From IMG/VR virus record IMGVR_UViG_3300044580_000446, positions 1-29,293 of that record: a stretch of DNA of 29,293 nt, one strand, 5' to 3'. This document shows positions 5,208 to 28,772 of this stretch, piece by piece. The DNA comes from a virus. Lineage: Duplodnaviria > Caudoviricetes. The notes under the pieces were generated by a model, which did not search any database, was not told the DNA's origin, and saw only the letters and a list, made by a program, of their open reading frames with translations. Made by a program: the position numbers and the translations under genes. Position 1 is the stretch's first letter. Each line of letters opens with the position of its first letter.

Positions 5208-5429
5208 TTAAACTTTGCCGTCCAGGTCAACCAGGTCGACCTTTTCCCTTATATGAGACAACGCCTCGGCATAACTTTTGCTGTTTAACACGGCATCACG
5301 AAGGTCATTATACTCGGTTATGAGCCGTTGTTTTCTAAGCGCATCCCGCACTTTGGACAGCACTCGGAATATGTTCCCCGACTCACCGCCGCTGTGGAAT
5401 TCAATCCTCTGTTTTTTCGACGCCATCAT
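5208..5429 (-). CDS. Small hypothetical phage protein (about 73 aa; GNIFRVL...SYAEAL)
   Basis: GGAGG RBS at 5436-5440 supports a start at 5429 or 5426; last gene of the amidoligase cassette. Confidence 0.75.
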   Translation of the reverse strand: MMASKKQRIEFHSGGESGNIFRVLSKVRDALRKQRLITEYNDLRDAVLNSKSYAEALSHIREKVDLVDLDGKV

Positions 5430-5877
5430 CGCATTCCTCCCCATATGTTCCCATTCTCATTTTGGTATGTTCCAAGGCTTTTGTCAGGTGTACGGTATCA
5501 AGCCCCACATCTTCATATCCTTTGGCTATTGCGTCCAGATACCATTTGCTTGGAAGGCAGGGTATACCGTCGTTCATAAGATACATCATGCCTTTGACCG
5601 TTTCGCCGTTCAGCTCCACATCGACTATAGTTTTGCCGTATAATCTGGGATAACCCTCATATCGGTCTAAGGAGATTTCATCCTGCGGAGTGATGTCCCA
5701 TATCCCTACGGGAGTTTCCGCCTGGGGATCGGGTTCCAGGGTCGCCACCCCTCTGAATGTGAGCTGCCAGCCCTTGAGCATTGCCGTTCCCACGGGTTTT
5801 GCCGTGGGACAGCGTACAGCCATTTGCCTTAGGTTTAAGTTGCTTCCGTATGCTATATACAGTTTGTTGTTTTTCAT
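5401..5877 (-). CDS. Gamma-glutamylcyclotransferase (GGCT/AIG2-like) family protein
   Basis: LYIAYGSNL, MAVRCP, LDRYEGYP motifs; start moved to ATG 5877 (GGAGG RBS). Confidence 0.9.
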   Translation of the reverse strand: MKNNKLYIAYGSNLNLRQMAVRCPTAKPVGTAMLKGWQLTFRGVATLEPDPQAETPVGIWDITPQDEISLDRYEGYPRLYGKTIVDVELNGETVKGMMYLMNDGIPCLPSKWYLDAIAKGYEDVGLDTVHLTKALEHTKMRMGTYGEECDDGVEKTED

Positions 5878-5894
5878 TGCGCTTTCCTCCGTCC

Positions 5895-6788
5895 TTAAGC
5901 CGCTATCCTGCGGTTGTCTTTCCATGCTATGTCGCCTTCGAGTTTTTCGAGCAGGTGAAGCCTTGCGGTCTTGAACTCGTCTCCGTTCAGCCCCAGCCTT
6001 ATCAGCCATGTCCTGAAGGTGAACTTTTCGTTAGTCGTCACCGTCTTTCTTGCCGAGGCGCAGGTCTGTGTTTTTGCCTGGTGGCTTATCGCCAGGGCGA
6101 GTTGTATGTATGCTTTTATCTTGCCGGCGTGGGTTGTGGAGTTGAAGCACCTGAACTCTATCGTTCCTTTCTGCCATACCGAGTGCAGGTTGAGCGCATG
6201 GTATCTGCTCTGATGGTAGTGTTGGGATGCCCCGTCGTTTCCGTTGTACCATACCTTTCTGACAGCCGTTTCGGTGTTAACGCTCGGGCGGTTCAGTCTG
6301 TTTACCAGGCTGCTTTCCACTTTTTTGCACCATCTGCTTGCCCTTTCTTCATTTACATCCAGGGCTTTGAACAGCAGGTCTTCTTTGCTTGCCATGATGT
6401 TGACTATGTTTTTCAGCGAGCGGGCGGTGTGTCCGTCCTTGCCGATGTGGACATGTATGCCTGTCGAGTCGTTCACTCTCATCCCCGCCTTTCTGAGTTC
6501 CCTTACTATCGCCTGCACCGTTTCGATGTCGTCGTAGCGGCATATGGGGCTTACCAGTTCCACCTTGTAGTCATCGGTTGCCGTTGCGCCGTTTTTCCTC
6601 TCTGCCCTTATGCTTGCGTCGCTCATCAGCTTCCATATCCTGCCTGTGCTGTCGGCGACCTCGTAGGCGCTGTAGGTTCCTCCCACATAGCGTTCCGATG
6701 TACCGAAGTAGGCTGCTATCGTTTTTGCCGCATCGTATCTTGTCAGTCCTGTCATCTCGATTTCGATTCCGAAGGTTTGTGTTTTCAT
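5895..6788 (-). CDS. Putative amidoligase (COOH-NH2 ligase type 2, Amidoligase_2)
   Basis: FGIEIE, DASI, ELVSP, STGIHVHI, RYHALN, TIEFR; start ATG 6788 with AAGGAG RBS. Confidence 0.92.
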   Translation of the reverse strand: MKTQTFGIEIEMTGLTRYDAAKTIAAYFGTSERYVGGTYSAYEVADSTGRIWKLMSDASIRAERKNGATATDDYKVELVSPICRYDDIETVQAIVRELRKAGMRVNDSTGIHVHIGKDGHTARSLKNIVNIMASKEDLLFKALDVNEERASRWCKKVESSLVNRLNRPSVNTETAVRKVWYNGNDGASQHYHQSRYHALNLHSVWQKGTIEFRCFNSTTHAGKIKAYIQLALAISHQAKTQTCASARKTVTTNEKFTFRTWLIRLGLNGDEFKTARLHLLEKLEGDIAWKDNRRIAA

Positions 6789-6817
6789 GGTTTGCTCTCC
6801 TTTGTTTTTGTAACACA

Positions 6818-6846
6818 ACAATACCGTATAAAGGTTAAAGAGCCCA
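6818..6846 (-). promoter_or_regulatory. Repeated cassette promoter, copy 2 (TGGGCT-N17-TATTGT)
   Basis: Direct repeat of 2157-2185, upstream of the amidoligase gene. Confidence 0.65.
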
Positions 6847-6891
6847 GTGAAAACGCGTAGAAAAACACTATATTTTTAAGATTTTATAAAG

Positions 6892-6917
6892 AAAAAGCGG
6901 TAGTTTTCTACCGCTTT
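6892..6917 (-). terminator. Intrinsic terminator after the 51-aa ORF
   Basis: AAAGCGGTAG-TTTT-CTACCGCTTT perfect 10-bp stem with a T tract on the minus strand. Confidence 0.8.
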
Positions 6918-6924
6918 CCTATGT

Positions 6925-7080
6925 TCAAATTTTCTCAACGCTTACTTTAAAATTTGTTCCGTCAGTAAGCTTTACTGTTATAGCCTGGCCGTCTGCGCTT
7001 GTTTCTTTTACCAAGCCTTCGTCAGTGTCAACGACTATAAGTTCATGTACCAGGTCTAGGAATTCTTTGCTTTCCATCAT
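6925..7080 (-). CDS. Small hypothetical protein, 51 aa (MMESKEFLDLVHELIVVDTDEGLVKETSADGQAITVKLTDGTNFKVSVEKI); not in the ORF track
   Basis: Translated by hand; AAGGAGG RBS; has its own promoter copy and terminator. Confidence 0.75.
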   Translation of the reverse strand: MMESKEFLDLVHELIVVDTDEGLVKETSADGQAITVKLTDGTNFKVSVEKI

Positions 7081-7101
7081 CCGCCCTCCTTTTTATTAAG
7101 C

Positions 7102-7130
7102 AAGATACCGTAAAGAATTTATTTAGTCCA
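7102..7130 (-). promoter_or_regulatory. Repeated cassette promoter, copy 3 (TGGACT-N17-TATCTT)
   Basis: CTGGAC-N15-CGGTAT, the same spacing as copies 1 and 2. Confidence 0.6.
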
Positions 7131-7144
7131 GTACTATACTTGTC

Positions 7145-7666
7145 TTATTTATAATCTTTTTGAAATCTCAATATGATTCTTGACACATAGCTTTGGCTTA
7201 GGTTTATTTTTTCAGCTATTTCTTTTTGTTTGTATCCTTTAGCATACGCTTTGATTATTTTACGGTCACGCAAACTCTGTTTTTTCAGAAAGTTATCTAA
7301 ATCCAATATTTCCGCAACAGCGTCCAACTGTATTATCTTTGCGGGTAATATGTCCGACAGACAAAGTTCATTTCCCTCATCATCTTTAGAGACGGGTTCG
7401 TCAAGTGACTTGTCCTTATATATAAACCTGTTTACCTTCCTTAAAAACATAATCATTTGATTATGTATACAAAATGCCGCATATGTAGAGAACTTTATAT
7501 TCTTGCCGCCGTCAAAACTCTTTGCCGCTTTGACCAGACCTAGCATTCCTTCTGATATAATGTCGTCTCTGTAGAGTAAAACCGGCTGGGTTTGCCTTAG
7601 CTTATTGAACGTAAAATAAACGAGCTTTATATTATCAGTTACTAAATCATCTCTTAAACACGGCAT
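7145..7666 (-). CDS. Sigma-70 family RNA polymerase sigma factor, sporulation (SigK/SigE)-like
   Basis: Region 2 NIKLV...DIISEGMLGLVKAAKSFD...KFSTYAAFCIHNQMIMFLRK; SLDEPV...DDEGNELCLSDIL; region 4 QKEIAEKINLSQSYVSRI. Confidence 0.9.
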   Translation of the reverse strand: MPCLRDDLVTDNIKLVYFTFNKLRQTQPVLLYRDDIISEGMLGLVKAAKSFDGGKNIKFSTYAAFCIHNQMIMFLRKVNRFIYKDKSLDEPVSKDDEGNELCLSDILPAKIIQLDAVAEILDLDNFLKKQSLRDRKIIKAYAKGYKQKEIAEKINLSQSYVSRIILRFQKDYK

Positions 7667-8777
7667 CTCTCAGCTCCTTTACCCTATCCGCTATCTCCCA
7701 GGAGAACTTCTCGTTTCCAAAATGTCCGCCGGATGCGGTTGATGTATAGATTTGTTTTTTTAGGTCAAGAGCCTTTATGATTTCAGCCGGTCTGAAATCA
7801 AATACATCCAGGACGGCGTTTTCGATTGCCTTATCTCCTGCCCTGTTTGTGCCGAATGTATCGATGTTTACCGCCATAGGTTCTGCCTTGCCTATGGCAT
7901 AGGATATTGTTACCTGGCACTTATCCGCCAGACCGCCTTCCACAATGTTTTTGGCTATGTATCTGGCAAAGTACGCGCCGCTGCGATCAACCTTGCTTGG
8001 ATCTTTTCCGCTGAAGGCTCCGCCTCCGACAGGAACTCTAGGACCGTAAGAGTCGGCTACTATCTTTCTGCCGGTCAGTCCTGTGTCCGCTTCTATACCT
8101 CCTGTTACAAACCTGCCGCTTGGGTTTATTAAGATTTCTGTATCTTCAAGGTCAAAGTCAGCAAATACTGGATATATAACTTTTTCTGTTATTTCCGACC
8201 GCAGCTCTTCCATATCTTTATCCGGTTTGTGCTGTATGGATATTACAATCTTAGTAAAGCGAATAAATCTGTCTTCGTCGAACTCGGCGGACACCTGGCT
8301 TTTCCCGTCTAAGCCTATGCCCTGTATTTCTCCGTTGGCAAAGACTTGCTCTATTCTGTTAGTCAGCCTTCTTGCATAGGTGTACTCTAACGGCATAAAG
8401 TCTAATGTCTCGTCACAGGCATATCCGACCATAATTCCCTGGTCGCCCGCCCCTTGATTGTCCTCCGTTCCTACAGCTCCTGCTATATCCGGACTTTGGA
8501 CATTGACCGCGGTTTTTATTTCAACGCCGTCAAGGTTATATCCAACCTTTTTTGCCGCCGCTTTTACAATTGCGTTATAGTTTATGGTTGCAGTTGTTGT
8601 TATTTCGCCGCCTATTACTATTAGCCCTTTTGTCGCAAAGGTCTCGCATGCCACATGCGCGTCAGGGTCTTCTTTTAAACACATGTCAAGCACCATGTCA
8701 GACACCAAATCGCAGAATTTATCCGGATGACCGCTTGTCACCGATTCCGCCGTGTATATTCTTTTCATTCTCGTCAC
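7647..8777 (-). CDS. metK: S-adenosylmethionine synthetase (phage-borne)
   Basis: ESVTSGHPDK, QSPDI, GAGDQG, DGKSQV, DTGLTGRK and GGGAFSGKDPSKVDRS signatures. Confidence 0.97.
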   Translation of the reverse strand: MTRMKRIYTAESVTSGHPDKFCDLVSDMVLDMCLKEDPDAHVACETFATKGLIVIGGEITTTATINYNAIVKAAAKKVGYNLDGVEIKTAVNVQSPDIAGAVGTEDNQGAGDQGIMVGYACDETLDFMPLEYTYARRLTNRIEQVFANGEIQGIGLDGKSQVSAEFDEDRFIRFTKIVISIQHKPDKDMEELRSEITEKVIYPVFADFDLEDTEILINPSGRFVTGGIEADTGLTGRKIVADSYGPRVPVGGGAFSGKDPSKVDRSGAYFARYIAKNIVEGGLADKCQVTISYAIGKAEPMAVNIDTFGTNRAGDKAIENAVLDVFDFRPAEIIKALDLKKQIYTSTASGGHFGNEKFSWEIADRVKELRDAVFKR

Positions 8778-10408
8778 TCCTGTAAAAATAATGCCTTATA
8801 TATTTCTTCCAATACATTGACAACTATCCCGTTGCCTGCCTGGCGATACTGCTGCGTATTGCTTATACCGGCATTTTGGATTCTGTCTATCTGATCGTCT
8901 TTCCAACCCATCAGCCTCAGGCACTCCCTGGGCGTGAGTTTCCTAATCCGAACATTTTCTGTAATCACAGCATTTCCATCGCCGGTAGTAAGTGTATGCG
9001 CTAAGCCTTTGCCTACTCTACCGCGTTTCGTATTAGAGTTTGGATATGTGATATTAACATAATCCCCCTCTCCCGCTTCATCATAGCCTTTTTTATTTGC
9101 AACTTTTATTTTTAGATATGACTGCTGAGTCTGTCCTGCATTTGCTTGAAGCGCCGGACATATTTCTGTTTCTCTTCGTTTCCGTGTTGCTGTCCCATCG
9201 GCAGCCTTATGCTCCCAATTATTAGGGGCAAGCAATGTTACATCTTTTGTCTCAAGCTTTAGTACGGCGGAACTGCCGGAGGCTGCATTGCACTGTGTCG
9301 TAATCGTCGGAGCTATATCCTTTATTTCCTGGCTGTTGTACGCCACAAACATCTCGGGGATATATCCTTTCTTTTCAATGAACTTACCATATTTTCGGCT
9401 TACGAAGTTTCCATCAATTAGAAGGTTGTCCTTCTGCACGGTTGTTATGGCGTTTGATGTGCCCTTTGTGTTTTCTTCAAAGCGTTGGACGATTTTTCCG
9501 CCCGGCGTTCTGTCAGAAGGATTGTCAGGATTTCGTCCTCTCATTGCCACTATTTTAAGCTCCGTATTCCCTCCGCCCTGGCAATGCACTGTCGGTGATA
9601 TGCCGTCCGGAGAGAACACTCTCTTGCTCATCTTGTAAACCTTGTCCCATTTACCGCCGACCAGGTCTCCCACCATTACGCATTGCGGCTCGTGAAAGTC
9701 TCTTTGTCTAAGGCATGCGGCTACACCTTCGGCGTCCCTTATGCTGTCCCGCCTTGAGTGGTATGTGGAAGCAAGAATGCTTTTTATCGTGCTTTCCCTA
9801 AGGTAGTATTTTTCTTCAACCATTTGGTCTATCATATCTTTCAGCCTCAGGGTAAGCTCTTTCTTTTTAGGGAACAAATACGGCTTATGCTCTCCAAGTA
9901 TCGATACAACGAAAACACGCTCACGGTTCTGCGGGATGCCGTAATCTTTAGCGTTCAATACCTGCCAGTAGTTTGCGTATCCGAGCGATGACAAATAAGA
10001 AAGCCAACTGTCAAAGTCGGCTTTGAATTTCTTGGATACCAGGTTTTTAACGTTCTCAAGGAGCAGGTACTTTGGGAGAATATTCTCTTCCTTTGCGATA
10101 TTCAGCAGCCGCTCTACTTCCCACAAAAGCCCCGAACGCGTCCCGCTGTCTTTTGAAAGACCTTTACCCTTTCCCGCAACGGATATGTCCTGACATGGAA
10201 AGGAATATGTCCATAGATCGGCTTCCGGCAGCCTCGATATCTTTGTTATATCGCCCAAGTTATTTACAGCTCCGTGCAATGCCTCGTAACTTTTTATCGC
10301 GTACTTATCGATTTCCGATATTGCCGTTACCTCATGCTCTACCCCTATATTCTTAAGAGCTTGAGACTGGCTGCCTATCCCGGCAAATAAATCTACAATC
10401 TTTAACAT
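8774..10408 (-). CDS. C5-cytosine DNA methyltransferase with a long variable region (probably multispecific)
   Basis: LFAGIG, FPCQD, ENV, PQNRER, RKLTPRECLRLMG, QAGNGI; long insert between motifs VIII and IX. Confidence 0.95.
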   Translation of the reverse strand: MLKIVDLFAGIGSQSQALKNIGVEHEVTAISEIDKYAIKSYEALHGAVNNLGDITKISRLPEADLWTYSFPCQDISVAGKGKGLSKDSGTRSGLLWEVERLLNIAKEENILPKYLLLENVKNLVSKKFKADFDSWLSYLSSLGYANYWQVLNAKDYGIPQNRERVFVVSILGEHKPYLFPKKKELTLRLKDMIDQMVEEKYYLRESTIKSILASTYHSRRDSIRDAEGVAACLRQRDFHEPQCVMVGDLVGGKWDKVYKMSKRVFSPDGISPTVHCQGGGNTELKIVAMRGRNPDNPSDRTPGGKIVQRFEENTKGTSNAITTVQKDNLLIDGNFVSRKYGKFIEKKGYIPEMFVAYNSQEIKDIAPTITTQCNAASGSSAVLKLETKDVTLLAPNNWEHKAADGTATRKRRETEICPALQANAGQTQQSYLKIKVANKKGYDEAGEGDYVNITYPNSNTKRGRVGKGLAHTLTTGDGNAVITENVRIRKLTPRECLRLMGWKDDQIDRIQNAGISNTQQYRQAGNGIVVNVLEEIYKALFLQE

Positions 10409-17409: not shown

Positions 17410-17823
17410 CTAAACTTTGCGGCCGCGTCTTATTTGTATCGATGGCTTTTCGGCTATCTTAATAAGTCCTTCAAGCCACTTTGGGAGTTCCCCGTCATTG
17501 TTTTCCTTAAGGTCCCTCACCGTTGCGGAAAGCGTGTTGCTGTTTATAGTGAATAAGTCCTCAAAGCCTCGTTCCTTCATTACCCTGTAAAGCTCGTCTT
17601 TCCTTTCCGGTTCCGCTGCCGGGTATTCCTTAACTACTAACGAGTAGTTAAAACCTTTGTGATTGAAGCCTGTCGATTCATTCTCGATCAGGTCTTGTAT
17701 AAGCTCTGCCGAAACACTTTCTATTTCGGCATTTATGCCCTTGACCTGCGCTTCCAGTTCCTGCTTTTTATCGCGCAATTCCTTTAAGAATTCCGCAAGC
17801 TGAAATCTTTTGTTTTCGTCCAT
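17410..17823 (-). CDS. Hypothetical phage protein with an N-terminal coiled coil
   Basis: 137-codon ORF whose start overlaps the SNF2 stop (TAATG); GGAGGT RBS. Confidence 0.75.
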   Translation of the reverse strand: MDENKRFQLAEFLKELRDKKQELEAQVKGINAEIESVSAELIQDLIENESTGFNHKGFNYSLVVKEYPAAEPERKDELYRVMKERGFEDLFTINSNTLSATVRDLKENNDGELPKWLEGLIKIAEKPSIQIRRGRKV

Positions 17824-19184
17824 TAACCTTTACCTCCTGTCAGTTTTCTGTAATCGTCTACCATTAAGCGCGCGATATCGCTTTTCCTGCGTAATGCTTC
17901 CATTACCTTTTCGTCAACCGTGCCTTTTGCCACCAAATGTATGTACAGGCACTTTTGCGTCTGACCTATGCGGTGGATGCGCGCCCTGCTCTGTTCGTAA
18001 TTGGCGTAAGAAAAGTCCAGTGAATAGAACACCGCCACATTTGCCGCCGTCAGCGTTAGACCCATACCGGTAGTCTGGAGTTGCCCTATAAACACCTTGC
18101 ATTCCGGGTCGGTCTGAAACTTTGAAACCTGTTCCGCTCTGTCGGCAATGCCGCCGTGGATAATCGCATAGCCTGTCTTGCGGATTTTTAATAGCCTTTC
18201 TATCGCTTCTATCTCGGGTACGAACCTTGCAAACACAACGACCTTCTTTCCCGCTTCCCCGCACTCGTCAAGGATATCTTCCAAAGCATCCAGCTTTGCG
18301 CGGCTGACTTCCTGAACAATACCGTTTTCATCGTCCCGTATAAACCCGCCGGTGCATTGGGATAGTCTTAATAACCTTGTAAGCACATTCCTCGTCGTTA
18401 CTTCGCCCTGCATAAGCTCAGAATAACTGTCCTCGTCGATGTTCCGGTATATGTTTTGGGCATTCCTCTCAAGCTGAATTAGTCTTATGTCGTCAATCTT
18501 GTCCGGCAGTTCCACCGCGTCTTCGATCTTTATCCTGTATGCTATCGAGTGCGCCTTTGTAACGAGTTCCGACATATTCTTGTATCCTACTATCTGGTGG
18601 TTGCCGTAGCCGCCCAATGTCGCGTACCTTGCCCGGAATCTGAAATAGCTTGTACCGAACACTTTCTCATCCAGGAACTTGTACTGACTGAAAAAGTCCA
18701 GAGGCGAATTTGTAATAGGTGTTCCAGTCAGGATCGCTTTATACTTTGCGATTCTTCCTAAATTGTGCAAGGCTCGTGCCTGTTTTGCCTGGGGGTTCTT
18801 GATCTTGCTTGACTCATCGCAAACTATAAAGTCCGGTTTCCACTTTGTTATCTCCGTTTCAAGCCGCCATGCGCTTTCGTAGTTGACTATCGCAATCTGC
18901 AGACCTTTCCCGTTCATATGCCGCAATATGTCCGCTTTCTTTATACTGTCGCCCGACAAAGCCGCCGCGTTATACTCAAAGTCAGCAAACTTGTTGAGTT
19001 CAGCCTCCCAGACTCCGACAATACTTTTCGGGCAAACTACAAGCAGTTTCTTTATCTTCCCCGCCTCGTACAATGCGCCCGCCACGGCAATCGTGGTTAT
19101 GGTCTTGCCGGTGCCTTAACCCATGTCCATAAAAAACGCTATGCCTTTGCTTTCCCGGCCATCTCCGTTAATTTGAACACTCAC
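17823..19184 (-). CDS. SNF2-family helicase with an in-frame TAA (19116-19118) inside Walker A; recoded or pseudogenised
   Basis: GGAGGTG RBS (19192-19198) and GTG 19184 give VSVQINGDGRESKGIAFFMDMG*GTGKTITTIAV, in frame with the tracked 420-aa ORF (VVCPKS, NYES, CDES, LTGTP, GMGLTL, QSRARIHRIGQ). Confidence 0.88.
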
Positions 19185-19621
19185 TTTACATCACCTCCTC
19201 TTTTTCTGTGTTTGCTCCAGTATTCCGAAAAGTGGAGCCTTGCGTGATCTGACTTTGTCATTACCGCCAGGTTCTCGGGACGGTTATCGGTTTTGTTCCC
19301 GTTGATATGGTGTACCACCTCATTCGTTAAAAGCACCCGTCCGATTTTCTTCTCTGCCACTACGCGGTGTTCATGCCGCTGATAGTATTTTTTGTAACCG
19401 TGCGCCTCGCCTTTTTGAGCTATTGCCTGCTCGCGTTTTCTCCTTCTTCTCTCCGCCGTCCAGAACTCCGGCTTATTGGTCGGGTTTTCCGTCCTGTTGA
19501 AAAGTGACAGCCATGCGTTATAACAATTCCGTGAACAGTAATTCTTTTTACTTGGTTTTCCTCTCTTTACAAATCCGCGGCCGCAAAAGAAGCAAATTAC
19601 TTTCCTGTTTTTTCTAGCCAT
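19181..19621 (-). CDS. Free-standing HNH homing-type endonuclease
   Basis: CFFCG...YCSRNC Zn motif; HEHRVVAE..IGR.L...EVVHHINGNKTDNRPENL; overlaps both neighbouring genes. Confidence 0.92.
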   Translation of the reverse strand: MARKNRKVICFFCGRGFVKRGKPSKKNYCSRNCYNAWLSLFNRTENPTNKPEFWTAERRRRKREQAIAQKGEAHGYKKYYQRHEHRVVAEKKIGRVLLTNEVVHHINGNKTDNRPENLAVMTKSDHARLHFSEYWSKHRKRGGDVK

Positions 19622-21853: not shown

Positions 21854-22750
21854 ATGGGAAAATCTTTTGGAAAATCCGAACGCACAATATGTGACTTATT
21901 TATAATTGGTAGAAAATTTACTTTTAATAACTTCGAGTATGAAATTCTAGAGTCAGGCAAGCCTACATGTCCTAAAGGGGAACCTAAAACAGATATTTAT
22001 GTCCGCGCTCGCTGTTTATTGAACAATAGTGAAAAAGAGCTTAAAATTACCTTTAAACAACACAATGCTGACTTTTTAGAAAATAAAACTAATGCAGAAC
22101 GGGCTGAATTGTTACTTGGGTCTAATTGGAAAGATATTATTTGCAAATCTACTGCTTCAATAAAAGAGCAATTTGAGAAACGTCCTATAATATACAAATC
22201 AGCCTTTCATCGCACAGAAAAAGGCGCCATCACACTCGGTTGGAAATTTGAGTTACTTAATAAACCAAGCGGTGAATTAAGCGGCGAGATGGCATTAACA
22301 GCTTCTCAAGTAATAGATGTATATTCGGGTACTAATCTTCCGTTGGATAAACGAAATGCCCGTGTTAATGGTAAAGTTATTGAAAATTCTGGGATAGCAA
22401 CCCATATTCTGGTTGATAATAGACCATGTTCAACATTACAAGAAACAATCAATAGTTTGCAAACTATAGAAGAATATGTGGCACAATATCCGAAAATATA
22501 TTTTGCTTGTAAGGCTTTGAATTATCGAACTTTTAATAGTAAATTTGATGGCAATCGTCCATTAGCTGTTTACATAGATTGGCATATATCTGAGGGCAAA
22601 CTCGCTGCAAAATTTTGTTATGATACACCGCTACTTCAAGGAGGTAATTTCGTATATTCAAGATTAATAAAAGCTCTTAGAGCATTAGGTGTAAGCACTA
22701 CCGATGATTTACAGGACAATATGATTCATTCGAGCATTAGAGTTATTTAA
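21854..22750 (+). CDS. Putative type II restriction endonuclease (PD-(D/E)xK-like)
   Basis: GEPKTDIYV...ELKITFK; directly upstream of a C5 methyltransferase; AT-rich. Family not firmly recognised. Confidence 0.6.
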   Translation: MGKSFGKSERTICDLFIIGRKFTFNNFEYEILESGKPTCPKGEPKTDIYVRARCLLNNSEKELKITFKQHNADFLENKTNAERAELLLGSNWKDIICKSTASIKEQFEKRPIIYKSAFHRTEKGAITLGWKFELLNKPSGELSGEMALTASQVIDVYSGTNLPLDKRNARVNGKVIENSGIATHILVDNRPCSTLQETINSLQTIEEYVAQYPKIYFACKALNYRTFNSKFDGNRPLAVYIDWHISEGKLAAKFCYDTPLLQGGNFVYSRLIKALRALGVSTTDDLQDNMIHSSIRVI

Positions 22751-22751
22751 T

Positions 22752-22780
22752 TTGACATAAATATTATTCTAAGTTAAACT
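22752..22780 (+). promoter_or_regulatory. Separate sigma-A promoter for the methyltransferase
   Basis: TTGACA (22752-22757) -17- TAAACT (22775-22780); GAGGAGG RBS follows. Confidence 0.7.
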
Positions 22781-22803
22781 TACAACAATGAGGAGGCACT
22801 TAT

Positions 22804-23787
22804 ATGAAAGTTGCAAGTTTGTTTGCAGGTGCAGGCGGATTAGATCTGGGATTTGAAGAAGCAGGGTTTGAGATAGTATATGCTAATGAGTATGATCCAA
22901 CTATTTGGGACACATATGAATCTAACCATAAATGCAAGTTAGATAAACGTGACATAAGAAAGATTTCATCTGAAGAAGTCCCGGATTGCGATGGAATAAT
23001 TGGAGGACCTCCATGTCAATCTTGGTCTGAGGCTGGCTCCCTAAAAGGTATTGAGGATTCCCGCGGTCAATTATTTTTTGATTATATACGTATTTTATCA
23101 GAAAAAAAACCAAAGTTTTTTCTTGCTGAAAATGTTGTTGGCATGCTTTCAAGTCGACATACTTATGCCGTAGAAAACATAAAAAAAATGTTCATCGAAG
23201 CAGGCTATAATCTTTCAGTCAATCTTGTTAATGTGGTTGATTACGGTATTCCTCAAGATAGAAAACGTGTTTTTTATATTGGAATACATAAGGATTATAA
23301 TTTTACTTTCAAGTTTCCTGAACCAGATAAAAAAATCGTCACGTTGAGGGAAGCTATTGGTGACCTAAAAGATTCAGCAGTGCCTGCTCTATTAAAAAAT
23401 AAGAAAAATCCAAATACAATAGTTCCTAACCATGAGTATTTTATAGGAAGTTTCTCAACTATTTTTATGAGTCGTAACCGCGTACGTAGTTGGGACGAAC
23501 CAGGTTTCACTGTTCAAGCCACTGGTCGTCAAGCGCAATTACATCCGCAAGCTCCAAAAATGGAAAAAATAGAACAAAATCTTTATATATTTAAACCGGG
23601 ATTTGAAAGTCTCTATCGTAGAATGACAGTAAGAGAATGTGCACGTCTACAGACTTTCCCAGACAGTTTTGTTTTCTACTATAATGATGTGAATGATGGT
23701 TATAAAATGGTTGGAAATGCAGTACCTGTTAAAATGGCAAAAATAATCGCTGAAGCAATAAAACATCAATTTGATATAAAGACCTAA
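22804..23787 (+). CDS. C5-cytosine methyltransferase, M.HaeIII/M.NgoPII-like (predicted GGCC)
   Basis: [23 protein letters not shown] and a target-recognition region [29 protein letters not shown] closely recalling M.HaeIII. Confidence 0.92.
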
Positions 23788-23856: not shown

Positions 23857-26800
23857 TTATTGAGCTTGTTTGCCTTGTTCTGTTCTTTTAAAATGTATAT
23901 CTGGTAAAATCACTTTTGTTTCGGTATATTCTCTACTTTTATCTTCTGTGTTTTTCCACCAAACAATAAGTCTGACGCTTGCATACTGCGGGATATATCC
24001 TCTTGCTGTCATTTCATTAATCCTTATGCTCATGCTGTCTGAAAATTGTATTACCTTTTTCCCTTCCGTTGTATAGGCAAAATATTTTTCTGCATTGCGC
24101 CCGTCTTTTAGTTCCACCATCTCACGCCGGATCTGCAGTTTATCTTTGCTTTTTACCAAAGCAACTTCTTTTTTACAGAAATAGAATGATGATAAAGCCA
24201 CGCCCTTATGTGAAACCGGGAATACAATTTCATCCGGCTCCTGATATTCTTTTTCGTCAAATATTTTTTTAACCTCTGAAAGTTTTATATCGTCAAAGCA
24301 GTTTGAGCTGCAATGTATGTAAAGGTTGTTTTTTGCCCGGGTCATAGCAACATAAACTTCGCGTTTTTTTGTATCTGTTTTTCGCGGCTGTTTTAAGGAT
24401 AAAAACACATTGTCAAACTCTCTGCCCTTTGCCTTATGTATGGTAGAAACGACTACTTGCGATATCTCACCTGTTACAAAATCCTCCAGCCTTGATTCAT
24501 GTGCAAATTGCATAAAATCAGACTTGTATTTTGATTTGGGATTCATCTCCTCAAAAACTTTTAGAAAATTTTTCGCATATTCATATGCCACGCTACCACT
24601 AAACTCATTTTCCATTATTGATTTTGCTCTTTCCCATGTGTAGTCATCTATTGTATATACATCTTCACGCAAAGACAGTGCATCAATAAAGCATCTCACT
24701 TCTGCAAGATTATACATTGAAAAGCCGCTGCCGTCCTGAATCAGTCTTGCAGATATGCCGTTTTTTGTAAGCAATCCGGCAATCGTTGCCGCCTCGTCAT
24801 TTGTTTCTGTAAGCACGCAAATCGAACCTGAAAGCGGTTTGTTTAAAATATCGTTCACTATTGGGATGCTCAGGTTTGAGCTCTTATATTTAGTAATACA
24901 GACTTCGCCATCTGCTTGCTGAACAGCTTTTATATCTGTTTCTTTCATCCTGTCAGAAATCTTTTTTAAAAAAGCATTTGACAACGCAACAATATTTTTG
25001 CGGCTTCTATAGTTTTCTAAAAGTTCATATTTGGTAGCCTTGTAATCGGTTATCAACGAACGCAGATATTTTGAGTCTGAATTTCTGAACTCATAGATGT
25101 TTTGATCATCATCGCCCACAGCAATTATACGCATTTCCTCGTTTGCTTCCATAAGGGCTTGGACAAGGGAAAACTCAACTTCGCTCATATCCTGTGCTTC
25201 GTCAATAACCAAAACTGTTTTTGTAATTTTGTTAGCTTCAATTTCACCTGATTTTATCCGCCGGACAGCTTCAGTTACCACGATATCGCTGTCGCTGAGC
25301 GAACCTACCCTACCCAATAAATCAAAGCAATATGAATGGAATGTGGTTATACCCTCCGCACGTGTTCCTCCGCCAATGAAGTTTGCGGCATTGCCCAGCA
25401 TTTCTGGTCTGGTCAGGCGTTTTCTAAACTCTGTCGCCGCCGCACGGGAAAATGTAAGCATTAGCATTTGTTCCTGCTTAACATCCTCCATTTGATAAAG
25501 CGAGGCTAACTTATGAACAAGCACTTTTGTTTTTCCGCTGCCGGGTCCGGCCGCGACTACGATATATTTACTGTCTGTATCCTTTATTATGCTAAGTTGG
25601 CGTGCCGATAAATCGCCGAAAAGCTGTTTAAATTTTTTAGGAGTAATATTTTTAGAAATCTCGGCTTCCCTGCCTCTAAAATATTTGCGAAGAAATACAT
25701 CATAATTTAATTTAAAATAGTCATCAACAAACTGCAGAGCCTCTTTATAGTCGCTCGTCATTCGTTTTGCATATTCACCCACGATATGTATTTGTTGAAT
25801 TTTATTGTTGTAAAAATCCTCCAGTTTCTTGTAATCTTCTCTTTTGTACTGACGTCTGGTATTTTGCTCAGTACGCTCTATTCTCATTGCGTTATAAGCT
25901 ACTAAAAACGCACCGTCAAGTCTGAGCGCTCCGATTTTCGATAAATAATACAATGTATCGTCTATCTCATCAAATGAAGTTTCTCTTTTGCCAAGCAAAT
26001 CACCCATTTCATATTCTTCTTTTAGTTCAAGGCAAGAAAACTCAACATCAACTTCCTCTCGTTCGTCTGACTGTGAAGTATATTGACTCTTTTTGAAAAG
26101 ATATTTGATTATAAAATCTGCGAGCTCGTTACGTCTGTTACACCGCTCTAATAAATAGTCATATGCAAAATTTGATTTGACAATTATTTCATCCTTTGTT
26201 TCGCTGTTTGCACGCTTAACCAGGTTCTTAATAGCATAGAAGTTAAATACGATTTTTAATTTCTGTATATTAACAGTAGAAACGGATTTCTCGCACTCTT
26301 TGTTTAATTCTTTTAAATTTATTTTTTGCTCGGCTTCAGATATGGTTTCTATTATAGATTTCTCTATTTGTGTGAACTCGTTAAGTATACCGAGCGATGT
26401 GTTTACTCTGCCGCTCTTTTTGACAAATGCGATTAAATCCTTGGCATCTGCAAGAATTCGTTCCTCACGCATTATATTGATGACTCGAATAATATTTTCT
26501 TTAACAATGCCTAAACTGTCTGACAAATAATCAATCCGTGATTCGCCATCCTCGTTGCCTGCTTTGGCACGGGATTTTGAGGATATCAAACTTTTTATTA
26601 TTCTGACAGCGTCTTGTCTTTCTTTATCGTTGCTGAACTTATCAGATGCATTTATCCGACGAGTCGCTTCTTCCATGTTTTTTACAAGGATGCTGTTTGC
26701 ATAAATTCGTGGACTGTTTTGTCCACGCTTCATAAAGCCCGATTCTTCAAGAGCTGCAATTGCAGTACGTACCCTTGTCTCAATATCATTAATCGAATCA

Positions 26801-28743
26801 TCCCAGCCTGCTTCTCTTGCTATTTCTAAGGCTGACTTGGATGCCGATTGCCTTAATTTCGTAATTTCTTTAATTGCTTTCCAGACTTGTTGAATTTCTT
26901 TTATGCTTAGTTTATTTTGATTAAGCATAATAAAATGCTTATTCAAGTCCTCTTCGTCAAACAGAACAAAACATTCCGCCGAAAGCTTTTCATCACGCCC
27001 AGCTCTTCCTGCTTCCTGTACATAGTCCTCTAAGCTGGTGGAAATGTCGTAATGTATAACAAGCTGAACGTCACTTTTATCAACGCCCATGCCAAATGCA
27101 GTCGTAGCAACAATAATCCTTGCCTCGCCACTCATAAACTTTTCTTGATTCTCTATGCGCTGCTGTCGATCCATTTGACCATGATAACTGACAACGCCTC
27201 CGCTAACGCCGTCTTTTTCAAGTCTCTCTGCAAGTTCTCTTGTGCGTTTTGTCCTTGATACATAAATAATAGCTGGAGTATTGTTATTTGTTTCTAAAAG
27301 TGTCCTTAGCTGCTGGTATTTATCCTCAGCTGAAGTTTTGGTAAATACATAATATTTTAGATTTGTCCTCTGCGCACCACTCCTAAACAGCACTAAATCA
27401 AGCGACAGCTTTTCTTTGAAGTATGATAATATATCCTCTATTACTCTCTGTTTTGCTGTTGCGGTAAAACACGATACCGGGATACTCTCTCTGAGATTTT
27501 TCTTCTCCTGATATTCTTTAATAAAGTCTCCAATATACAGATAATCAACACGGAAATCCTGCCCCCACGATGAAAAACAGTGGGCCTCATCAATTACAAA
27601 TCGTACGATATTACGTTTTAGCAGCAAAGTTTCTATGGATTTTGACCGTAAACTTTCAGGTGAAATATAGAGGATAGAGGCAGAGCCATCCTCAACCCTT
27701 TCGTATGCCTTTGCTCTGTCAATCGGGTCAAGCGCCCCGTTTATCGTAACCGCCTCGGTAATTCCCTTTTGTTCCAAGTTGTCCACTTGGTCTTTCATAA
27801 GTGATTGCAATGGTGAAATGACTACTGTCAGACCTCTGACTGCTTCGCCCTGAACAAGTGCAGGTAATTGAAATGTTATGGATTTCCCACCGCCCGTTGG
27901 GAAAATTGCAAGCAGCGACTTCCCATCTATTGCAGCCGTTGCTGCCATTTCTTGCAGCGGCATCCCCTCATAAGTCCTGAACGATGGATAATTAAACAGT
28001 CTGTTGAGAGCTTTAACAGGGTTAATACTGCTATTGCAATAATCGCAGCCCGTAGCACAGCGACTGCTTCTGAGATAATATAATATATTTTCAACCCTTG
28101 GAAAGTGTTTAAAAACCCACGGCGGTGTCACCGAATATTTATTATCAGCATTGATAAGAGCCAAACTATATGAAAGTTCAACAGGCGATTCTTTAATGAA
28201 TTTTGCCAGATTAGCATTTTCGCATATTTTACCACTGAAATAATCTTTGATATTCTTTTCACAATCACCGTTGCTTTCAAAGCCAATAAAGATAAAAAAA
28301 TCTTTAAATTCCTTTTGTTCACAAAGCAGCGAGTAATAAATGCTTTTTAATCGCTTGTCCAACTTGTTAAAAGTTGATATTTCGTCAAAAAATAAATCTC
28401 TTGATAATTTTGAGTCTAAAACAGGATTGTTTGGGTCTTCTTCCGATATGATTTTATACTGCTTTCCAATTTTATGATAAGGCTTTGATGGGAACAAAAG
28501 CGGTGACCAGTAAAGCGTATCTATGAACTTTCTCACTGGCGATTGCACAATGGCGTCTTTAACATATTTTAAATCATGCTCAAAGATGTTGTGTCCGCAA
28601 AGATATTCTGCGTCTTTAATGAAAGCCGAAAAAGCCGACTTGCTTGAATCGTGAAATTCTTTATTGGTTAAACTGACAGCCCCTATATCAGGTGGTGTTT
28701 TGTCAGCCTCTAAGTCAAAAAAAACTATTTCTACTTCCGGCAC
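23857..28743 (-). CDS. Large fusion: DEDD exonuclease-like domain, RecQ-family SF2 helicase and UvrD-like SF1 helicase
   Basis: FFDLE/GHNI/DTL; PTGGGKS, IDEAHCFSSWGQDFR, AFGMGVDK, QEAGRAGRD; AGPGSGKT, IDEAQD, VGDDDQNIYEFR, ENYRS, STIHKAKGREF, YVAMTRAK. GTG 28743 follows GGAGG. Confidence 0.9.
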   Translation of the reverse strand: MPEVEIVFFDLEADKTPPDIGAVSLTNKEFHDSSKSAFSAFIKDAEYLCGHNIFEHDLKYVKDAIVQSPVRKFIDTLYWSPLLFPSKPYHKIGKQYKIISEEDPNNPVLDSKLSRDLFFDEISTFNKLDKRLKSIYYSLLCEQKEFKDFFIFIGFESNGDCEKNIKDYFSGKICENANLAKFIKESPVELSYSLALINADNKYSVTPPWVFKHFPRVENILYYLRSSRCATGCDYCNSSINPVKALNRLFNYPSFRTYEGMPLQEMAATAAIDGKSLLAIFPTGGGKSITFQLPALVQGEAVRGLTVVISPLQSLMKDQVDNLEQKGITEAVTINGALDPIDRAKAYERVEDGSASILYISPESLRSKSIETLLLKRNIVRFVIDEAHCFSSWGQDFRVDYLYIGDFIKEYQEKKNLRESIPVSCFTATAKQRVIEDILSYFKEKLSLDLVLFRSGAQRTNLKYYVFTKTSAEDKYQQLRTLLETNNNTPAIIYVSRTKRTRELAERLEKDGVSGGVVSYHGQMDRQQRIENQEKFMSGEARIIVATTAFGMGVDKSDVQLVIHYDISTSLEDYVQEAGRAGRDEKLSAECFVLFDEEDLNKHFIMLNQNKLSIKEIQQVWKAIKEITKLRQSASKSALEIAREAGWDDSINDIETRVRTAIAALEESGFMKRGQNSPRIYANSILVKNMEEATRRINASDKFSNDKERQDAVRIIKSLISSKSRAKAGNEDGESRIDYLSDSLGIVKENIIRVINIMREERILADAKDLIAFVKKSGRVNTSLGILNEFTQIEKSIIETISEAEQKINLKELNKECEKSVSTVNIQKLKIVFNFYAIKNLVKRANSETKDEIIVKSNFAYDYLLERCNRRNELADFIIKYLFKKSQYTSQSDEREEVDVEFSCLELKEEYEMGDLLGKRETSFDEIDDTLYYLSKIGALRLDGAFLVAYNAMRIERTEQNTRRQYKREDYKKLEDFYNNKIQQIHIVGEYAKRMTSDYKEALQFVDDYFKLNYDVFLRKYFRGREAEISKNITPKKFKQLFGDLSARQLSIIKDTDSKYIVVAAGPGSGKTKVLVHKLASLYQMEDVKQEQMLMLTFSRAAATEFRKRLTRPEMLGNAANFIGGGTRAEGITTFHSYCFDLLGRVGSLSDSDIVVTEAVRRIKSGEIEANKITKTVLVIDEAQDMSEVEFSLVQALMEANEEMRIIAVGDDDQNIYEFRNSDSKYLRSLITDYKATKYELLENYRSRKNIVALSNAFLKKISDRMKETDIKAVQQADGEVCITKYKSSNLSIPIVNDILNKPLSGSICVLTETNDEAATIAGLLTKNGISARLIQDGSGFSMYNLAEVRCFIDALSLREDVYTIDDYTWERAKSIMENEFSGSVAYEYAKNFLKVFEEMNPKSKYKSDFMQFAHESRLEDFVTGEISQVVVSTIHKAKGREFDNVFLSLKQPRKTDTKKREVYVAMTRAKNNLYIHCSSNCFDDIKLSEVKKIFDEKEYQEPDEIVFPVSHKGVALSSFYFCKKEVALVKSKDKLQIRREMVELKDGRNAEKYFAYTTEGKKVIQFSDSMSIRINEMTARGYIPQYASVRLIVWWKNTEDKSREYTETKVILPDIHFKRTEQGKQAQ

Positions 28744-28772
28744 TCTTTTTTCCTCCAAGCGTTTAACAAGGG

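Follow-up and report, generated by a model that had tools for sequence, protein, structure and literature searches.

A phage SNF2 helicase split by an HNH endonuclease gene carries a putative short bypass site at its Walker A motif

Natural bypassing of coding gaps in bacteria is known from gene 60 of phage T4 and its relatives and from one Streptomyces candidate. As far as the available text of Manning and Atkins describes (bioRxiv 2022.08.31.505936), an HNH gene splits the host gene in the gene 39, mobA and gene 60 layout, MobA nicks gapless alleles and the gap gives immunity, and the take-off and landing codons of gene 60 homologues always match within wobble. In the accessible part of another study, pairing of the exiting mRNA is the proposed driver of the gene 60 bypass (bioRxiv 2024.12.09.627546). 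The Streptomyces candidate, the terminase of phage Hau3, has a short natural gap of 10 nt and a proposed 5' stem-loop stimulator; it has a rare UUA trigger and a proposed regulatory role, and neither a homing endonuclease nor a helicase is described in the available text (PMC10732093). In Magnusiomyces mitochondria, mobile inserts called byps are crossed by bypass with a relaxed match between take-off and landing, as the accessible accounts have it; these inserts measure 27-55 nt, are crossed by mitochondrial ribosomes, involve unused sense codons and lie in many genes. A 2016 review, in its available text, knew of no natural in-frame stop hop, and the E. coli stop-hops that it covers are synthetic constructs (PMC5009743).

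We have analysed a stretch of 29,293 nt from a virus record with portal, terminase, primase and LexA-like genes (hereafter the window), in which a helicase of the SNF2 type is interrupted by a GGU-UAA-GGC sequence at the glycine of its Walker A motif. From comparisons within its family, we consider that ribosomes probably cross this gap by a short programmed bypass within a homing-endonuclease cassette, with a probability of roughly 0.78. We infer the hop, the push by an RNA helix and the identity of the product from these comparisons. On the one hand, set against what the available texts describe of the T4 cassette, both layouts show a host gene split by an HNH gene and followed by a new N-terminus, a homologous stretch and a coding gap; both have a glycine take-off codon with a stop or rare codon next to it and an implicated 5' RNA structure, and in both the nuclease is often lost while the gap stays and the halves can re-fuse. 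On the other hand, the gap lies in a helicase Walker A motif here and in a topoisomerase large-subunit gene there, the HNH protein has about 146 aa instead of the 269-279 aa of MobA, and the gap measures 4-11 nt instead of 20-50 nt. The helicase family also differs in that it has no conserved take-off stem-loop, a central G suffices for landing, its helix directly adjoins the take-off codon and shows covariation throughout the family, and its hosts are mostly Clostridia. The helicase gap would work like the gene 60 bypass and is neither its homologue nor a member of the MobA element. The Hau3 candidate is the nearest known to it in size (PMC10732093, available text). The in-frame gap of the window matches the synthetic stop-hop; unlike those constructs, as they are described in the available text, the helicase site is natural, under selection and equipped with a dedicated predicted RNA signal (PMC5009743). 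A full-text literature search, with most subscription papers and supplements outside it, found no report of the gapped helicase family.

Table 1. Features of the split helicase locus in the window (positions of the window).
Feature	Position	Strand	Basis or remark
Helicase N-terminal half, 109 aa	19614..19943	-	ORF; 60% identity over 98 aa to P0002 residues 1-98
HNH endonuclease gene, 146 aa, HEHR-type	19181..19621	-	Pfam HNH_3, E 3.8e-15
Shine-Dalgarno-like GGAGGTG of leader	19192..19198	-	Sequence; 7-nt spacer to GTG 19184
Leader ORF, 21 codons: novel N-terminus and strand preceding Walker A	19122..19184	-	Sequence
Predicted helix, 5' arm GUGUUCA	19174..19180	-	Pair probabilities 0.84-0.99 (5' side alone folded); family covariation
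Predicted helix, 3' arm UGGACAU	19123..19129	-	Ends 2 nt before take-off codon; 1 nt in most relatives
Inferred take-off codon GGU (Gly)	19119..19121	-	GGU/GGC in 54/57 gapped vs 13/26 intact alleles
UAA stop adjoining take-off codon	19116..19118	-	Stop here in 54/57 non-redundant gapped alleles
Inferred landing triplet GGC	19113..19115	-	Central G in 57/57 alleles
Helicase body, 429 aa, SNF2 and Helicase_C domains	17823..19112	-	Pfam; resume codon ACC at 19112

The HNH gene (19621-19181) splits the helicase and overlaps both neighbouring ORFs (Table 1). The ORF of the N-terminal half (19943-19614) stops just past a PYQHQ motif and ends in a short unrelated tail. The frame of the body is open from the ACC at 19112 to the stop at 17825-17823 and carries SNF2 and Helicase_C domains by Pfam, and the MGxGK motif is complete only when it is read across the gap. 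The closest relatives of this protein are fused helicases of about 542 aa (P0002, 542 aa); the body of the window is 87% identical to the intact fused L001/P0002, with dN of 0.087 and dS of 1.9. A similar leader is also present in the intact split relatives P0022 and P0024, both without a gap. No tRNA genes were found in the window.

The original prediction on this DNA had proposed a programmed hop across the stop at the Walker A glycine. Its ribosome-binding site GGAGGTG with a 7-nt spacer, the GTG at 19184, the GGT-TAA-GGC at 19121-19113 and the open frame to 17823 are all present as claimed, and its product of 451 aa agrees with a leader of 21 codons, one glycine and a body of 429 aa. The called ORF, which starts at 19085, indeed lacks Walker A. 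This earlier picture of the gene gave the putative hop site correctly; the N-terminal half, the splitting HNH gene and the conserved 5' helix were absent from it. The bases themselves could be checked on assembled contigs. Contig X2 (study P1), from a strain about 97% identical, spans 18950-19450 unbroken and keeps the 6-nt gap, with two substitutions, neither of them at the site, and no indel. Its presence in the contig of an independent strain shows that the gap is no error of assembly. Contig X4 (study P2), which extends over 19090-19279 and has one substitution elsewhere, agrees with the window at the site; it has fewer than 31 letters on one side of the site and is therefore not counted as bridging. 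The site is outside the coverage of contigs X6 and X8, and the RNA runs X16 and X20 contained only 5-7% of the sequence words.

The exact GGN-stop-GGN pattern gave no loci in IMG/VR, and a gap pattern requiring MDMG only gave four matches, all unrelated; the gap family surfaced only with looser patterns. When extra bases were required between MG and GTGK (pattern A), 10 viral, 89 metagenome and 49 genome loci were retrieved, which together with the window made 149 records. Among these, 88 belonged to the helicase family, and the remaining 61 (different proteins, fortuitous matches or intact sites) were set aside; the stop directly followed GGN in 86 of the 88. When the pattern fixed the stop and left the landing free, skips of 4 nt and landings on AGC, CGC and UGC were also retrieved; a pattern fixing neither stop nor landing gave 45 matches, 42 of them in the family (38 with a stop and four with UUA). 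Pooling all searches, 224 loci reduced to 141 distinct alleles, and the gap was found at the same Walker A glycine in 95 of them, with 45 gap types, and the other 46 were intact; the ratio of gapped to intact among these pattern-selected loci does not represent prevalence. Signature counts below refer to a non-redundant set of 57 gapped and 26 intact alleles. In samples selected on upstream sequence only, and among the matches listed, 4 of 239 viral loci were gapped, as were 3 of the 48 of those near the window helicase. A sample of 401 genomes from the class of genome G001 contained six matching genomes, five of the family type. The hosts are mostly Clostridia (11 of 18 genome loci, with five in Bacillota without a class and one in an Acidobacteriota bin), and two isolate genomes, L143 and L165, carry the gap. 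The two closest cultured phages, THSA-485A and FP_Epona, carry intact sites, and no match was found among plasmids at E 1e-60. In one genome bin, G003, a 9-nt and a 10-nt gap allele (L154 and L155) occur with helicases 95% identical, beside further helicase matches.

The skipped stretches measure 4-11 nt and restore the frame from all three registers (0/+1/+2 in 20/10/27 of the 57 alleles); L154 and L155 differ by one C more or less in the gap, so that the frame differs between them. The codon after take-off is UGA in 25 alleles, UAG in 16 and UAA in 13, and the remaining three have AGA, CGA or UUA, codons that account for 0/3, 1/19 and 0/39 of the cognate codons in their own helicase genes (for UUA, in L480, none of 39 Leu codons). 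An alternative genetic code was considered and rejected, because the gaps shift the frame and all three stops are used. Clostridia have a tRNA-Gly with a GCC anticodon. C is the last base of all eight landing triplets that do not begin with G, compared with 47% of those that do, and two-out-of-three pairing of the GCC anticodon would favour this. The gap spacers contain one G in 111 nt. In 51 of the 57 alleles no two-pair triplet comes before the one that restores the frame, and in the other six an earlier one exists; among alleles with a spacer the restoring triplet is the first in 35 of 41, compared with a mean of 19.6 for random spacers. A match between take-off codon and landing codon on the same tRNA had been part of the original prediction; this applies to the window and to only 40 of the 57 alleles, with AGC, CGC, UGC and GGA landings occurring elsewhere. 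A preference of GGA take-off codons for GGA landings (2/3 vs 8/54, p 0.08) was not upheld. An in-frame start preceded by a Shine-Dalgarno sequence is present in all 57 gapped alleles by a loose motif test. Because the alleles are related, all these counts and p-values overstate independence.

In averaged folding, nucleotides -8 to -1 before take-off paired with upstream bases, as a rule 26-52 nt away and in most cases where the leader begins. The predicted 8-bp helix has at least seven of its eight pairs in 54 of 57 gapped alleles vs 2 of 26 intact ones, and its probability exceeds 0.5, with only the 5' side folded, in 53/57 vs 2/26. The third base of an Asp/Glu codon covaries with its partner (A-U 35, G-U 8, C-G 6, G-C 5, U-A 3). 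When the arm was chosen blind to this variable position, the position still paired in 56 of 57 alleles, a value that none of 20,000 shuffles reached (mean 39.1), compared with 8 of 26 intact alleles. RNAalifold recovered the helix in 25 alleles of equal spacing, with 97.5% of the cells paired as against 30-50% when the arms were slid. We consider that the conserved signal is this predicted 5' helix, directly 5' of take-off and with compensatory changes. In the window itself two of the helix pairs are G-U, another arm does equally well in the blind test, and the region of the helix is no stabler than shuffled sequences (z -0.69 and +0.87); the helix has a probability of 0.96 there, and of 0.32 in L093, the closest cassette relative of the window. 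Helix and gap persist in alleles without the HNH gene, and in 24 of 41 such gapped alleles an upstream PYxHQ-type motif is in frame again. No stem-loop containing the take-off codon appeared among the 30 top averaged pair probabilities of the 57 alleles, no conserved A-site stem-loop was found in the family, and enrichment of 3' structure was not supported. A 6-bp stem 3' of the site, predicted earlier, does exist at its positions in the window; it is not conserved, since the window alone among the 57 gapped alleles pairs it fully. The C-rich spacers had suggested a GGG-loop-CCC mini-hairpin spanning the gap, which was not among the conserved pairs.

During translation of such an allele, a ribosome would pause with peptidyl-tRNA-Gly on the GGU (GGY in the family) while its A site faces a stop or slow codon. 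Translation would have unwound the helix, which may then refold at the exit side directly behind the ribosome and push it forward. The peptidyl-tRNA-Gly would re-pair at the first adequate triplet, GGC in the window, and decoding would resume at ACN, here ACC, to give an intact Walker A motif. A difficulty for this push model is that the helix abuts the P site: a hop of 4-11 nt leaves too little room outside the ribosome for the whole helix, which is within the usual ribosome footprint even after landing. The driver structure of gene 60 ends 26 nt away, according to the accessible text (bioRxiv 2024.12.09.627546). In the available part of a further report, upstream hairpins adjoining the shift site promote forward shifts on 70S ribosomes and mimic an internal Shine-Dalgarno duplex (PMC6321510). 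We lean slightly towards a broader proposal, in which an 8-bp exit-side helix and a stop would form a minimal and widespread module that suffices for skips of 4-11 nt in any frame, with nearly every triplet whose central base is G open to landing. Homing endonucleases would have used this module repeatedly to invade the ATP-binding loops of phage helicases, and its in-frame cases would be the first natural in-frame stop-hops.

Other explanations of the gap have to be weighed against the bypass. One alternative is loss of the gap at the RNA level, where an unknown activity in trans would cut and join the RNA or the RNA polymerase would skip the gap, with the 5' helix serving that step. An intron could in that case end at the invariant G that lies two bases ahead of the resume codon, and codons that match only loosely would be no surprise; however, none of the 57 alleles has a frame-restoring register in which the 5' exon ends in U or C and the removed piece ends in G, so that a group I geometry fails, and an Rfam search of the window at E up to 1 gave no match. 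Signatures of decoding are also present, namely a stop or rare codon in frame, a bias towards GGY and a C following a mismatched first position, and we regard removal from the RNA as unlikely. Readthrough or a one-base frameshift, depending on the length of the allele (readthrough in the window), would leave a loop one to three residues longer. The GGU-U and G-GGU contexts permit one-base slips, and promotion of +1 shifts by an upstream helix is known from the available part of that report (PMC6321510). Nevertheless, three mechanisms would be required for one conserved element, the near-identical alleles L154 and L155 switch frame, and a sense-only insertion is found neither in the 33 in-frame gaps (0/33 lack a stop) nor in the 108 intact proteins. 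All 108 relatives with an intact site read MGxGK; in the full set of 120 homologous proteins, 11 others begin after the site and one is a frameshifted gap allele. From these alignments a longer Walker A loop seems not to be tolerated, which argues against readthrough or single-base shifts, and we consider them quite improbable.

The stop could also be a true one, in which case an internal start would yield the body as an ATPase-dead protein that serves some other role, or the gene would be switched through rare loss of the gap from the DNA. This would fit the in-frame GUG at 19085, the UUG that overlaps the stop in some 8-nt alleles, and the intact alleles at up to 98.8% protein identity. Against it, the GK codons beyond the gap stay intact and vary synonymously, as does the Thr codon (ACN in 95/95, a count partly imposed by the search patterns), most gap types have no in-frame start before the motif, and the leader and the helix are conserved. 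No joint that skips the gap was present in the contigs examined, which as assemblies drop rare variants. We give the true stop a low probability. Lastly, in favour of a pseudogene or an assembly artefact, many of the loci are prophages, and the body is truncated in 6 of 75 gapped loci. On the contrary, the gap is kept in an independent strain contig and in the two isolate genomes, which speaks against an artefact, and the helicase remains under purifying selection, which speaks against a pseudogene: between the window and the strain contigs X1-X3, 23 codon changes are synonymous and three non-synonymous among the 29 sites listed, and the median dN/dS is 0.067 in 22 gapped pairs, about twice the 0.035 of 12 intact pairs. 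An ORF of at least 400 aa is kept in 69 of 75 gapped and 35 of 36 intact loci with at least 1400 nt downstream. Decay or artefact is accordingly very improbable. The programmed bypass at the Walker A glycine, as originally predicted, draws strong comparative support from one site in 95 distinct alleles, lengths independent of frame, three stop codons and purifying selection.

Its association with the splitting HNH gene suggests that the gap probably entered the helicase together with that gene. An [EAL]H[RC] motif is present in all 51 HNH proteins beside gaps and absent in 11 of 12 beside intact sites; the exception, L002, has an HNH of the HEHR type and an intact site. An unbiased sample contained two gapped loci with the motif and 16 intact loci without it. 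In the HNH type beside intact sites, KKAR-like letters replace HEHR and the HH-x-N-G core is kept; the nine of these motif-less proteins that are on the tree form one clade. This HNH type is a candidate for a dead or retargeted nuclease; reading it as a dead enzyme is not supported, since the core is retained. Split helicases with intact sites and this separate HNH type were observed at L320, L321, L339, L342, L346, L348, L352, L365, L379, L381 and L387. A PDB sequence search with the HNH protein gave no match and hence no solved relative.

Gapped alleles adjoin intact ones at 87-99% protein identity, and the gap state changes at least 14 times on a helicase tree of 112 rows. On 46 matched loci the gap needs three changes on the helicase tree and two on the HNH tree. 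The contrast of 14 with two changes was rejected as proof of mobility, as different rows were used; with three against two on matched trees, mobility rests on the nesting of gapped among intact alleles. The gap and helix remain after loss of the HNH gene and after re-fusion of the halves. On the model of MobA in the account of Manning and Atkins, the gap may protect an allele from the HNH nuclease by altering its presumed target, and we consider immunity a fairly probable origin of the gap.

The helicase family comprises 45 gap types of 4-11 nt that occur naturally, has a 5' helix that covaries, and includes nearly identical alleles without a gap that can serve as controls. With a cassette of less than 100 nt, it makes a bypass driven by refolding of the mRNA behind the ribosome directly testable. 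The combination of a homing nuclease with a bypass gap suggests a recurring solution. The family also suggests that gapped helicases get called as truncated genes without Walker A.

Several further observations were made in relatives and in the window. In 5-nt gap alleles (P0090, P0127, P0130, P0131, P0133 and P0134), gene callers give a false out-of-frame N-terminus; the 90% cluster of these proteins includes intact members, and therefore the gap is polymorphic within the cluster. The same GGU-UAA gap recurs, 8 nt long, at about 1021-1054 in L453, a distant helicase (36% over 58 aa), together with a full 8-bp helix that has its 5' arm at the start codon, 80 nt upstream. The HNH beside this helicase, which we take to be NUMOD4-like, is of a different type and precedes an N-terminus that is not split; the helicase body is interrupted after 85 aa and may therefore be decaying. 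The Walker A position of a distant helicase in L243 holds a long insertion that begins with Cys and is likely an intein; it follows the match at 1801-1820. In L396 an HNH-like sequence begins at that same Walker A position. In the window, a 298-aa ORF without a Pfam match followed by a C-5 methylase (21854-23787, + strand, opposite to the phage genes) is likely a restriction-modification pair, and beside it a 1633-aa DEAD plus UvrD double helicase is encoded at 23857-28758 (- strand). Between the replication and packaging modules, at 5401-10408 (- strand), lie gamma-glutamyl cyclotransferase-like, amidoligase, SAM synthetase and C-5 methylase genes.
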